From Methanobacteriota archaeon (GTDB lineage: Archaea > Halobacteriota > Bog-38 > Methanoflorentales > Methanoflorentaceae), in the NCBI GenBank assembly GCA_963719035.1, contig CAVRAO010000008.1, positions 96,001-160,000 on the forward strand: DNA of 64,000 nucleotides. Direction: 5' to 3'. Shown here piece by piece: positions 46,456 to 49,461 of the stretch (positions are counted from its first letter, which is position 1; every line of letters begins with the position of its first letter). Both the position numbers and the translations under genes were made by a program. Under the pieces are notes generated by a model. The model was not told where the DNA came from. It did not search any database and saw only the letters and a program-made list of their open reading frames with translations.

Positions 46456-46887
46456 CTGGTTCTAACGGCTGAAAAAGCGTGGGGATTAGCCGCGTACGCG
46501 TTGTTGCGGAACAGCGAGGACAAATACCTGCTTTTACGCAGATCTTCAGATTCCAAAACAAATCCAGGGAGATGGGAACCTCCAGGTGGCAAGATTGAGC
46601 CTGGAGAGCTGCTTGACGAGGCTCTTCGAAGAGAAGTATTTGAAGAGACGAACTTGCAGATCGTCGTTCGCCGATTGCTGGGCGCTGTCGAGTTCGAGCT
46701 TCCTACCATTAAAGTCGCGTGCCTCATTATGGAGGGGCGTATTATATTAGGGGATATCCATCTTAGCGTTGAGCACGACGCATATCGGTGGCTCAGGTTA
46801 GAAGAGGTGCGACACGTCGACCTTGCGACGCATTTTAGGCGCTATTTCTTCAGCGATCAATCGCAGCGAAATGTTATGGTTGAGTGA
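46456..46887 (+). CDS. NUDIX hydrolase (MutT-like; start uncertain, CTG 46456 after AGGAGG or TTG 46501)
   Basis: LLLRRS...[15 protein letters not shown]...[12 protein letters not shown]udix box; LS.EH..Y.W. Confidence 0.88.
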
Positions 46888-46929
46888 GACTATACCCGTA
46901 AGTGCTTCATCAATCAGAGATGTGCGTAG

Positions 46930-49461
46930 GTGCCGAGCACGATGAGTGAAACCGATCAAGACCAGTTCCGCGCGTGGTATAGAGAGCAAATTGAGAACTT
47001 TGAACGCGTTGCGCCGCGCTATGAAGATCTGGCAAAGGTTCTTGATGCTATCCTTACGGCGCTTGCAGAGCGATACGCACCGCTTGCAATAGTACAAACA
47101 CGACCGAAGTCACTTTCGAGCTTCGCAGAGAAGATTATTCGAAAGCGCGCTGAGGTGAGCGACCCGGTCAACGAGTTTACCGACCTCTGTGGGGGACGCG
47201 TCATCACCCACACCCAGACCGAGGTCACGTCGATCTGCAATTATATCGAGAAGCATTTTGACATCGATTGGGACAATAGCGTCAACATTGACCAACGCCT
47301 CAAGGCGACCGAGTTTGGGTACCGATCGGTCCACTACATCGTCAGCTTGCGTCCTGGTTCGTTGACGGTCGGAAGCATTTCGATTGAGATTCCAGAGACG
47401 GTCGCCCGTTTGAAGGCTGAAATACAGGTGCGCACACTCCTCGAACACGCGTGGGCTGACTTCAGCCACGATAAGAGTTACAAAAGCTCGTTTGCATTCC
47501 CGCGACAGTGGCAACGTGAACTGGCGCGGATAGCCGCGGTGCTCGAGGATGCCGATCAATCCTTTGCGACGATTGAGAACCGCCTGACAGCTTACGCTGC
47601 TAACTACAGCGCATACATGAGTGAAGCGCAGATACGAGAAGAGATGCGCACCCTCATCATGATCCTTGAACACGACCCACACAACGTCCAGCACGCGCAC
47701 CGGATTGGACGACTGGCGATGACGCTCGGCGACTGGGAGCGGGCCATCGAGACCTTTACCGCGTACGTCGATACGGGCTACCCTCCCCTCCTCAAAGATC
47801 TAGGAGTTGCACTCTGCAAGCGACACAGCGCAAAGCCCTCAAGCACACCTTATCGAGAGGGACAGCGCTTCATCGAGACTTCGCTTGCGAAAGTCCACGA
47901 CCCTGATACGCTTGTCTGTCTTGCAGATACGTGGCGTGAGAGTGATGAATGGAAGGCGCGAGAGTTATACCGTCAGGCGTTTGAGCTCGATCCCTCAGAT
48001 CCCTACGCGCTCATCAACTATCTAGAGCTCGAAATCAGCCATCGCGGAACGACCTCTGTCGTCGACGTTGTTCGCCCCTTAATGCGCATGGCAATTCGAC
48101 GATGCTGGGAACAGATCGCTGTTGGGATCAATATTCCGTGGGTATACTATGCCCTTGGAGTGCTCCATTTACTCCTCGATGAGCTTCACGATAGTCTCAT
48201 CGCTTATGCAAAGGCTATCCAAATGAGCACCGCAGAGTGGCCGATTGCAAGTGCATACCACTCTCTCGTTAAGCTGGCCTCTGTCCAGAGCGCGTTACAC
48301 GGTTACACGTGGGCGCGCACCCTCTTGCTCGTTGGATGGGCAGGGCGGTTCGACGCTGCTGAGGCACGCACATATCTCGAAAAGTTGGCCACGCCGAATA
48401 GCCGGCGAATCAAAGCGCCGGTCACCATCGTCACTGGTGGGTACGATTCTCTGAGTGAATCATATGCGACGAGCTATCAGGAGCTTATGCGTGAGGCTTT
48501 CAAGGACTATAACGGGACAATCATCTCGAGCGGTATCGACGCGGGCATTAGCCACGTCATTGGGGATGTGCAAGAGCGCTATCTCGAGCTACAAACGATT
48601 GGATTCGTTCCGAGCGTGCTTCCCCAAGGCTCTGCTCTCGATGCGCGGTACAGCGAAATCCGCCGAACGGATGATGAGGGATTCAACCCCGCTGAGCCCC
48701 TCCAATATTGGGTTGATCTTATAACATCGGGTATTTCACCCACGAGCGTCAAGCTTCTCGGCATCGATGGCGGCAGCATTGCGGGCATCGAGTATCGTCT
48801 AGCGCTCGCATTGCGCGCGAGCGTCGCCGTCGTCGCGGGAAGCGGCGAGGAAGCGGCGCGGTTGGTCCAGGACGACGAATGGCGTACGTCCGAGACGCTC
48901 ATACAACTGCCAAAAGATCCGCTTTCTGCGCAGGTGTTCATCGGTTCAACCGAACAAACGCTCCCAACGGCCATACGAGAGCACATCGCACGCGAGATCC
49001 ACGACATCTATCGCAACCGCCTCAAAATGACGCAAAGCGAGGACCCCTCGCTTGCTGATTGGGATAGGCTTGTCGAACACCTTAAAAACTCAAGCAGGGC
49101 ACAAGCGGATCATATCGCACAAAAACTAAGCGCAGCTGGCTATGGAGTCAGAAAGGCACGCGGCACGCCTGTCGTGCAGGAGTTCTCGTCTGAGGAAGTC
49201 GAGATCATGGCAGAGCTTGAGCACGGCCGGTGGAACGTGGAACGCCTGCTTGACGGGTGGAAATGGGGACCGATAAAGGACGTGGCAAATAAGATTAGCC
49301 CATATATCATACCATGGACCGGACTGCCCGAAGAGATGAAGGAGTACGATCGTGATGCGGCACGTCAGATACCGCATTTGCTTGAGGAGGTGGGCATGGA
49401 GGTCGTCCGAATGCCTACTCAGAAACGCAAACCGTCGCGGCGCAAGCCTGTTCCTGCTTAA
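46930..49461 (+). CDS. RelA/SpoT nucleotidyltransferase - TPR - SLOG-like - RyR multidomain protein
   Basis: RPKS..S..EK, DLCGGR, GYRSVH, EIQVRT..HAWA...H..YK; helical repeats; GG..A..E...A...VAVV.GSG..A; AELEH.RW...R...GW..G..KD...K..P...PW..LPE..KEYD. Confidence 0.85.
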   Translation: MPSTMSETDQDQFRAWYREQIENFERVAPRYEDLAKVLDAILTALAERYAPLAIVQTRPKSLSSFAEKIIRKRAEVSDPVNEFTDLCGGRVITHTQTEVTSICNYIEKHFDIDWDNSVNIDQRLKATEFGYRSVHYIVSLRPGSLTVGSISIEIPETVARLKAEIQVRTLLEHAWADFSHDKSYKSSFAFPRQWQRELARIAAVLEDADQSFATIENRLTAYAANYSAYMSEAQIREEMRTLIMILEHDPHNVQHAHRIGRLAMTLGDWERAIETFTAYVDTGYPPLLKDLGVALCKRHSAKPSSTPYREGQRFIETSLAKVHDPDTLVCLADTWRESDEWKARELYRQAFELDPSDPYALINYLELEISHRGTTSVVDVVRPLMRMAIRRCWEQIAVGINIPWVYYALGVLHLLLDELHDSLIAYAKAIQMSTAEWPIASAYHSLVKLASVQSALHGYTWARTLLLVGWAGRFDAAEARTYLEKLATPNSRRIKAPVTIVTGGYDSLSESYATSYQELMREAFKDYNGTIISSGIDAGISHVIGDVQERYLELQTIGFVPSVLPQGSALDARYSEIRRTDDEGFNPAEPLQYWVDLITSGISPTSVKLLGIDGGSIAGIEYRLALALRASVAVVAGSGEEAARLVQDDEWRTSETLIQLPKDPLSAQVFIGSTEQTLPTAIREHIAREIHDIYRNRLKMTQSEDPSLADWDRLVEHLKNSSRAQADHIAQKLSAAGYGVRKARGTPVVQEFSSEEVEIMAELEHGRWNVERLLDGWKWGPIKDVANKISPYIIPWTGLPEEMKEYDRDAARQIPHLLEEVGMEVVRMPTQKRKPSRRKPVPA

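Follow-up and report, generated by a model that had tools for sequence, protein, structure and literature searches.

A 64,000-nucleotide stretch of the genome of a Methanobacteriota archaeon (assembly GCA_963719035.1, contig CAVRAO010000008.1, positions 96,001 to 160,000 of the forward strand; hereafter the window) carries two co-oriented genes that we read as a ligand-gated nucleotide synthetase and its eraser. The larger gene (46942..49461, plus strand) encodes a protein in which a RelA/SpoT-type synthetase domain is followed by a TPR solenoid, a SLOG domain and a RyR repeat region; the smaller, just upstream on the same strand (46465..46887), encodes a NUDIX hydrolase. The synthetase would answer to an adenine-nucleotide or ADP-ribose (ADPR)-type ligand and the NUDIX enzyme would erase either its product or that ligand, an interpretation that we regard as about evenly balanced between right and wrong. 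It is supported by the identities of the domains, the conservation of catalytic and pocket residues, the synteny of the NUDIX gene, an association with TIR and STAND genes at other loci, and the occurrence of the sensor cassette together with a SLATT effector. The parts are known, and their combination (synthetase, TRPM-type SLOG, RyR repeat and conserved NUDIX partner) appears to be undescribed: no paper describing RelA/SpoT with SLOG and RyR was found in the literature searched, although supplements of RelA/SpoT homologue (RSH) classifications or the 2015 SLOG survey could already list the architecture, and the portions available of PMC7159879, PMC9503650, PMC3153485 and bioRxiv 575399 do not describe it.

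A synthetase domain fused to two predicted nucleotide-sensor folds

The frame of the large gene is free of stops from GTG 46930 to 49461, as a first-pass annotation of this DNA, made from the letters alone, had stated for its 843-aa open reading frame (ORF). The database copy of the protein is 839 aa long and begins at ATG 46942; homologues begin at the same point, and this ATG is the probable start. An AlphaFold2 (AF2) model of the protein with 120 homologues as input has a mean pLDDT of 90.4 and a pTM of 0.82. Position 47028 is T in the window (giving Asp33), and G (Glu) in the contigs of all four runs compared and in relatives: the T is a window-specific variant or an error.

The N-terminal part (aa 1-225; 46930..47604, plus strand) is a small-alarmone-synthetase (SYNTH) domain with flanking helices, identified by Pfam, Foldseek and PDB sequence matches. 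Pfam RelA_SpoT (PF04607) matches aa 57-186 (E 7e-17, 62.1 bits against a cut-off of 27), and this is the only copy of the domain in the genome, which comprises 2.19 Mb in 13 contigs and is 91% complete. All the synthetase motifs listed in the first-pass annotation are present and hold up across the family: RxKxxxSxxxK, DxxGxR, GYRSxH, EIQxRT and HxxxxYK are invariant or at least 90% conserved among 120 homologues, with R58, K60, K68, D85, G88, G130, H135, E164, Q166, T169, H180 and K185 invariant in 120 of 120. The domain is predicted to be catalytically competent. RelQ and RelP are both the best Foldseek matches in the PDB for the model of the large protein (TM on target 0.72-0.79; 0.78 for RelQ 5ded/5dec), with CapRel (7ztb) at rank 41, and the best PDB sequence matches to the domain (E 1e-12 to 1e-19, aa ~40-225). 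RelQ (SAS1/YjbM) and RelP (SAS2/YwaC) have the same catalytic fold and motifs and, like the large protein, no HD domain; the absence noted earlier is confirmed by Pfam for the protein and extends to the 91% complete genome, in which there is no HD_4 match. The two are, however, single-domain proteins of ~210 aa, whereas the large protein adds ~600 aa of TPR, SLOG and RyR. The NCBIfam YjbM model scores 52.6 on it, far under the cut-off of 320, and with 843 aa and three further domains it is not the small single-domain protein by which the small alarmone synthetase (SAS) class is defined.

A TPR solenoid (aa 226-486; 47605..48387, plus strand) would link the enzyme to the sensor. It is all-helical in the model (helices 232-486), and TPR Pfam families match aa 245-433, in keeping with the TPR-like middle proposed at first. 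The region is without hypervariability, its mean pairwise identity being 49% in a protein whose four regions range from 43 to 58%. Because all regions are about equally conserved, a conserved small-molecule cue is favoured over fast-evolving protein targets.

The LSDAT-type SLOG domain (aa 487-680; 48388..48969, plus strand), a Rossmannoid fold and predicted nucleotide sensor, was the weakest of the domain calls and was therefore folded on its own, with 54 homologues as input; the sub-model has a pLDDT of 93.1. Definitions of SLOG and LSDAT reportedly go back to Burroughs et al. 2015 (NAR). The LSDAT_prok model, with a cut-off of 25.4 bits, matches aa 497-550 of the whole protein (E 2.5e-6, 27.4 bits) and scores higher on the excised domain (E 4.9e-8, 32.9 bits); it also matches 50 of 54 homologues individually. 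In a Foldseek search of the PDB with the sub-model, all the matches listed were MHR1/2 regions of TRPM2/3/4/5/7/8 (E to 6e-8, TMq 0.55-0.71), and by entry title they include ADPR-bound TRPM2 and ATP-bound TRPM4 (9mtc). These results uphold the earlier SLOG/LSDAT-like call. Conservation is complete or at least 90% at G503, G504, G529, G535, T536, G539, G611, G614, G615 and E621, and we take the glycine-rich positions to be nucleotide-binding ligand loops. Both Pfam and fold comparison place the SLOG of TRPM2 in this subfamily, and TRPM2 likewise pairs it with NUDIX, fused (NUDT9-H) in the channel and adjacent here. TRPM2 is, in contrast, a eukaryotic cation channel whose NUDIX is of the ADPR-pyrophosphatase class, whereas the NUDIX of the module is nearest to MutT, NudI and NudG.

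The C-terminus (aa 681-830; 48970..49419, plus strand) is an RyR region, probably a Repeat12-like tandem, with a predicted adenine-nucleotide or ADPR-type pocket. Pfam RyR (PF02026) matches aa 755-825 (E 3e-14, 53.3 bits against a cut-off of 27.4) and scores the second repeat only; the pair that had been proposed rests for its tandem character on the model, where a helix-helix-strand unit occurs twice (680-742 and 754-827), and on PDB profile stretches that reach back to aa ~723-733. In that profile the C-terminus matches Repeat12 (R12) of RyR1/2/3 (E 2e-29) and also the stand-alone bacterial structures 3nrt and 6uag, each entered as 'putative ryanodine receptor'. E764, H765, W768, W777 and P791 are invariant among the 120 homologues, and conservation at D807 and R808 is 90% or higher. 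According to the sections available of PMC12627627 and PMC13642953, R12 binds ADP and AMP-PCP, and the second of these presents it as an ADP sensor. A 2026 preprint (PMC13232231, available in part) describes phage PF02026 proteins that bind or cleave 2'cADPR and 3'cADPR via His, Trp, His and Asp; most of the RyDEP homologues tested there bind without cleaving. An alignment to the R12 chimera 6uhi maps this RyDEP-type pocket onto H765, W768, S790 and D807, so that by this mapping three of the four residues (His-x-x-Trp and Asp) appear to be kept. The large protein belongs to the same domain family as R12 and phage RyDEP and differs from both in its divergent first repeat and in its setting, a multidomain enzyme and not a stand-alone sponge or glycosidase or part of a channel. 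Characterised relatives of both the SLOG and the RyR fold bind adenine nucleotides or ADP-ribose derivatives, and by analogy the two domains may do the same.

The NUDIX gene and its linkage to the synthetase

The NUDIX gene lies in a frame open over 46450-46887 (Pfam NUDIX E 9e-20), and its stop lies 42 nt ahead of GTG 46930 and 54 nt ahead of ATG 46942, so the co-oriented NUDIX gene about 40 bp upstream is where it had been reported. It had also been given a beginning at 46456; the Nudix box and the rest of the frame are intact, but 46456 is a CTG, no start, and the ancestral ATG of the gene reads ACG here. The Nudix box (GGK x5 E x7 RE xx EE x x L; 46585..46656, plus strand) includes G42, G43, K44, E58, E61 and E62, which are invariant in 46 orthologues, and all nine residues invariant in those orthologues are present in the window copy. 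Ahead of the ancestral start stands a GGAGG Shine-Dalgarno-like motif (46450..46454, plus strand; invariant in the window and in loci L004 and L002), and further upstream, in a block kept in two same-genus relatives, a TATA-box-like element, TTTATAAA (46404..46411, plus strand), which is a putative archaeal promoter for both genes.

In profile comparison with solved structures, this MutT/NudG/NudI-like protein is closest to 3grn_A ('MutT related protein', E 4e-38), followed by NudI, NudG-like CTP pyrophosphohydrolases and MutT, with ADPR pyrophosphatases scoring lower. MutT and NudG are reported to metabolise (p)ppGpp (PMC5845004 and PMC7593582, in the parts available). The NUDIX of the module resembles the (p)ppGpp-degrading enzymes MutT, NudG and Thermus Ndx8 in being small and MutT-like with a complete Nudix box, and is by this likeness a candidate non-HD route of alarmone removal; its best solved relative, 3grn_A, is unannotated. 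Archaeal SAS without a small alarmone hydrolase (SAH) were noted by Atkinson et al. (2011; PMC3153485, from the accessible text), who proposed that a Nudix enzyme takes the place of the missing hydrolase, and the module is a concrete candidate for a pair of that kind.

Linkage was assessed from a scan in which each of 185,579 species was represented by a single genome. It gave 403 confirmed stretches, of which the best 80 loci, near full length, were analysed. With an orthologue defined as a match at E < 1e-20 to a profile built from linked copies, a NUDIX orthologue is found in 48 of the 80 loci, and in 46 it lies within 200 bp of an RSH-family gene. Where both genes are full length and the layout was classified (n=37), 35 have the two genes co-oriented, with NUDIX upstream in 30 and directly downstream in 5, and 2 have NUDIX on the opposite strand; a TrkA_N-RyR gene sits between NUDIX and synthetase in 3 of the 30 upstream loci. 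Homologues were to be checked for NUDIX either adjacent or fused: adjacency is common, and fusion was not seen, PF00293 being present in none of the best 120 homologues. Distance matrices of NUDIX and large protein are correlated (Mantel r 0.44, with 0 of 2000 permutations as high), to which host kinship could contribute. A prediction of the complex of the two proteins lends weak support, with a score of 0.43 (runs 0.00, 0.51 and 0.43) against 0.01 for the best control; 58 of 80 solved complexes and 2 of 110 mismatches reach the mark set for such predictions, but only 7 of the 80 pass it with a score no higher than 0.60, which is where both passing mismatches fall.

Distribution and neighbourhoods of the family

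A protein-database search returned 617 relatives at E <= 0.001 out of 8000 scored candidates. The best 120 homologues are full length at 807-1060 aa (one 696-aa partial excepted) and 46-91% identical to the window protein; their source labels are Chloroflexota, Planctomycetes, Proteobacteria, Eisenbacteria, Halobacteriota, Bathyarchaeia and Altiarchaeales, and their database names, where given, are 'RyR domain-containing protein' or 'ppGpp synthetase/RelA/SpoT-type nucleotidyltransferase'. The 80 loci all come from metagenome-assembled genomes and span ~17 phyla by their titles. The module is widespread in bacteria and archaea with most homologues bacterial, and its initial framing as archaeal has to be given up. 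In the window's own order the gene occurs in 8 of 24 genomes and in one genus only, being present in 7 of its 17 other genomes and found in none of the 6 of a second genus; within the first genus one copy is just 50% identical and there are several remnants.

Some members depart from the common layout. Longer ones of 1053-1226 aa are found at L011, L026 and L050 and as P0065, P0100 and P0110, the last three carrying an extra KaiC/RecA-like ATPase domain (PF06745), and RSH-family genes stand side by side in pairs at the bacterial loci L080, L081, L054, L046, L052, L020 and L017. The M. acetivorans protein 'divRel', included by Atkinson et al. among their archaeal SAS, was considered as a member and is probably of another family, since that genome matches RelA_SpoT but not RyR.

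A ~600-aa protein with TrkA_N and RyR domains is a recurrent neighbour of the pair. DUF4062-NACHT/STAND-TPR proteins are present in 21 of the 80 loci, TIR ORFs in 17 and WD40 proteins in 14, while 12 have ClpB-like double-AAA proteins. Overall, 39 loci have a STAND, WD40 or TIR gene. Among the 171 ORFs no more than two genes from the pair, TIR_2 (14 ORFs) is one of the commonest families outside RSH. The idea that the module lies in defence islands, raised in the first-pass annotation, finds support at these 39 loci and none in the window, where the neighbourhood is housekeeping. PADLOC-DB v2 has no model for the whole protein and offers only domain-level candidate single-gene models, PDC-S33 matching the N-domain (aa 35-255, E 2e-15) and PDC-S07 the NUDIX (E 3e-22).

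The same genome (G000) holds a second RyR match, a TPR-SLOG-RyR copy that lacks the synthetase domain. It is the first gene of a decaying four-gene operon on contig 6 (~114815-120000; L083 320-3144 and L084 6951-12526), in the order TPR-SLOG-RyR, SLATT-like protein, TIR_2-PsbP and HEAT-repeat protein. The TPR-SLOG-RyR gene lies in three frames, with +1 and -2 indels relative to intact orthologues that may partly be assembly error, and the HEAT gene is split (266 + 186 aa). The SLATT-like protein has 409 aa and four transmembrane segments; it scores 22.5 bits with Pfam SLATT_1, below the cut-off, and its orthologue in G010 reaches 39.9 bits against an NCBIfam cut-off of 41. The same four genes occur in G010, G021 and G018, making four genomes of the genus with this sister operon, and the ~500-aa first gene is intact in G010 and G021 (507 and 487 aa). 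In the G018 chromosome, ~21 kb (379438-400137) contain the sister operon, a NUDIX-synthetase pair and a 907-aa ORF with a RyR match. This is a small island of RyR-domain genes; the synthetase-pair copy there is in two frames, and the frameshift may partly be assembly error. ESM-Atlas clusters include SLOG-RyR alone (~412 aa) and RelA_SpoT-TPR alone (~420 aa). Sister operon and stand-alone clusters together suggest that SLOG-RyR is a portable sensor cassette, joined either to a fused synthetase or to an adjacent membrane protein and TIR.

A proposed gated synthetase and competing explanations

How could such a protein work? In the mechanism that we propose, the TPR solenoid would hold a RelQ/RelP-type synthetase domain against the C-terminal SLOG and RyR sensor cassette, and ligand binding at SLOG/RyR would turn the synthetase on. 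The likeliest ligand would be an NAD+-derived signal of the kind made by TIR proteins, or else ADP/ATP or ADPR as a stress cue. The product, whether (p)ppGpp, (p)ppApp or a target carrying an added pyrophosphate, would slow or arrest growth. The presumably co-transcribed MutT/NudG-like NUDIX would pyrophosphorolytically remove the product or the activating ligand, and would in this way set the threshold and reset the switch. Ligand, gating, product and NUDIX substrate are all predictions from sequence and structure models. A precedent for the receiver half is Thoeris ThsA, another protein in which an effector carries a fused SLOG receiver for a nucleotide signal. ThsB is a TIR protein, and TIR is found in 17 of the 80 module loci and in the sister operon, though not beside the window gene. 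ThsA-type effectors are SIR2, transmembrane or Macro domains, whereas here the effector would be an alarmone-synthetase domain and the SLOG is of the LSDAT/TRPM subtype.

Several observations weigh against a gated signalling switch of this kind. First, the window gives it no defence context: the pair has a housekeeping neighbourhood (the rRNA operon, tRNAs and genes for purP-like, PsbP-like and beta-lactamase-fold proteins), which is no defence island, and within its reach the window holds neither TIR nor STAND nor any further defence gene. Second, the family does not look like one caught in an arms race, as cross-phylum identity of 46-52% is high for such a gene, and searches of plasmids, phages and viral contigs found no full-length relative, only ~200-aa stand-alone SAS with 26-35% identity to the N-domain. 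Third, the NUDIX partner is not constant. It is absent from 20 of the 68 assessable loci (these 20 have 600 bp or more of flanking sequence on each side; the other 12 of 80 could not be assessed), and five NUDIX-less genomes contain no orthologue-grade NUDIX anywhere: the best match has E 4e-24 and two genomes have none at 1e-15, where linked copies score 1e-40 to 1e-56 with a comparable profile, and these best matches appear to be generic NUDIX proteins and not the orthologue. In the window itself, ACG (46465-46467) replaces the ATG that two same-genus relatives have eight bases past the conserved GGAGG, and the sole canonical start left, TTG 46501, would cut off the first beta-strand. The ACG recurs in an independently assembled Logan contig from run X1, possibly the sample from which the genome derives: the contig spans 46300-47133, and its one listed difference is at 47028. 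Because there is no ATG, the NUDIX partner in this genome is probably weakly translated at best, next to an intact synthetase gene. Fourth, this family has Ser (S790) in the place of the His that contacts phosphate in the RyR pocket. Fifth, the runs of the complex prediction disagree (contacts agree in at least 0%, with a partner pLDDT of at least 72). Finally, no biochemical or genetic study of any family member was found in the literature searched.

Some of these points fit better with a housekeeping regulator of stress or energy, in which the cassette would read ATP/ADP, NAD(H) or ADPR and tune synthesis of a (p)ppGpp-like product that the NUDIX degrades, an HD-independent, stringent-like circuit with no role in phage defence. 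The high and even conservation along the protein, the housekeeping neighbours in the window and the failure to find copies in the plasmids, phages and viral contigs searched would all be expected of it. So would a third gene that often encodes TrkA_N, which is NAD-binding, together with RyR; TRPM4 MHR binds ATP, judging by the title of entry 9mtc. Prior proposals point the same way, in the parts of these papers that were available: R12 as an ADP sensor (PMC13642953) and Nudix as the hydrolase for archaeal SAS without SAH (PMC3153485). Against it, the gene is present in only 403 stretches across 185,579 species genomes and in 8 of 24 genomes of the order, with remnants and apparently frameshifted copies in the genus; TIR, STAND or WD40 genes lie near 39 of 80 loci, and the sister operon contains TIR and SLATT, both hallmarks of conflict systems. 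On account of the window neighbourhood and the high conservation, this energy- or stress-sensor reading stays a serious rival, even if we think it rather improbable.

A plain toxin-antitoxin pair is unlikely. Here the synthetase would be a constitutively toxic toxSAS, the NUDIX an antitoxin that degrades the nucleotide (type IV-like) or binds the toxin (type II-like), and the C-terminal domains accessory. The compact bicistronic layout with a small upstream gene, conserved across phyla with NUDIX within 200 bp in 46 of 80 loci, does resemble toxSAS operons (bioRxiv 10.1101/575399, as far as its available text goes), the PADLOC candidates PDC-S33 and PDC-S07 match the two proteins, and the complex prediction (0.43 against 0.01 for the best control) argues weakly for binding. 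The module also shares with CapRel and other toxSAS a RelA/SpoT domain under a covalently attached regulator. Yet the partner of toxSAS is an SAH or a proteinaceous antitoxin, whereas here it is a NUDIX that is dispensable in many loci, and the N-domain is closest to the housekeeping SAS RelP and RelQ, with CapRel far down the Foldseek ranking. The CapRel sensor is a protein-recognising pseudo-zinc-finger; the sensor here consists of predicted nucleotide-binding folds, and a simple pair would leave ~600 aa of strongly conserved sensor domains unexplained. The NUDIX-less loci (20 of 68; all five such genomes that were checked are also without an orthologue elsewhere) and the ACG in the window, where the synthetase is intact, weaken the strict pair in particular, and with it the antitoxin role that had been one of the options at the outset.

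It is very unlikely that the product is a non-classical one, that is, that the RelA/SpoT domain pyrophosphorylates an ADPR-type ligand held by SLOG/RyR or a macromolecule such as tRNA, perhaps with the RyR repeat as a RyDEP-like glycosidase: RSH toxins can pyrophosphorylate the tRNA CCA end (bioRxiv 10.1101/2021.04.30.441581, in its accessible part) and the RyDEP catalytic dyad His/Asp corresponds to H765 (invariant) and D807 (at least 90% conserved), but the closest solved relatives of the N-domain are the (p)ppGpp-making RelQ and RelP, and the tested RyDEP homologues mostly bind without cleaving (PMC13232231, in part).

Surroundings of the pair in the window

The NUDIX-synthetase pair lies on the plus strand ~1 kb from the 16S end of a complete archaeal rRNA operon (40482-45420, minus strand). 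Formylmethanofuran-dehydrogenase-like and purP-like genes close by indicate, from gene content, a methanogen-type euryarchaeon. Two purP-like (DUF1246/DUF1297) genes (36641-37447 and 39268-40368, plus strand) flank a FAD-dependent oxidoreductase, the first of them truncated in DUF1297. A PsbP_2-like ORF (49658-50245, minus strand) is convergent to the synthetase gene and shares 26% identity (E 2e-9) with the PsbP portion of the sister-operon TIR-PsbP, which may be coincidence. In a tRNA cluster at 55067-55741 (minus strand), of which ARAGORN calls just one tRNA, an Rfam tRNA match (55457-55625) contains a match to the C/D-box sRNA sR3 (55499-55573), as expected of an intron-encoded guide RNA. 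The TrkA_N-DHH-DHHA1 protein at 55973-57301 (plus strand) could be a nucleotide phosphoesterase whose regulatory domain binds NAD.

Implications

Beyond the gated synthetase itself, we tentatively suggest, as something possible rather than probable, that NAD+-derived immune or stress signalling, common to bacteria and archaea, has its alarmone arm in this family: a TIR-made ADPR-type nucleotide would act on SLOG and RyR, the synthetase would respond with (p)ppGpp or (p)ppApp, the NUDIX would be the eraser, and the same cassette would alternatively be wired to a SLATT pore. If this were true, some archaea would run an alarmone response, and the ligand modules of TRPM and ryanodine-receptor channels would descend from one prokaryotic two-domain nucleotide sensor. 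If borne out, it would also bridge (p)ppGpp-type alarmone signalling and TIR/ADPR second-messenger immunity, so far separate fields. The module is in any case a widely distributed candidate for archaeal alarmone metabolism independent of an HD hydrolase, and the family is large, well conserved and confidently modelled, which should make work on ligand, enzyme and structure straightforward. Its two predicted sensing domains have otherwise been met in calcium channels of animals (TRPM and the ryanodine receptor), and finding a TRPM-type SLOG domain and a RyR repeat in one prokaryotic sensor may offer a handle on the original ligands of these channel domains.

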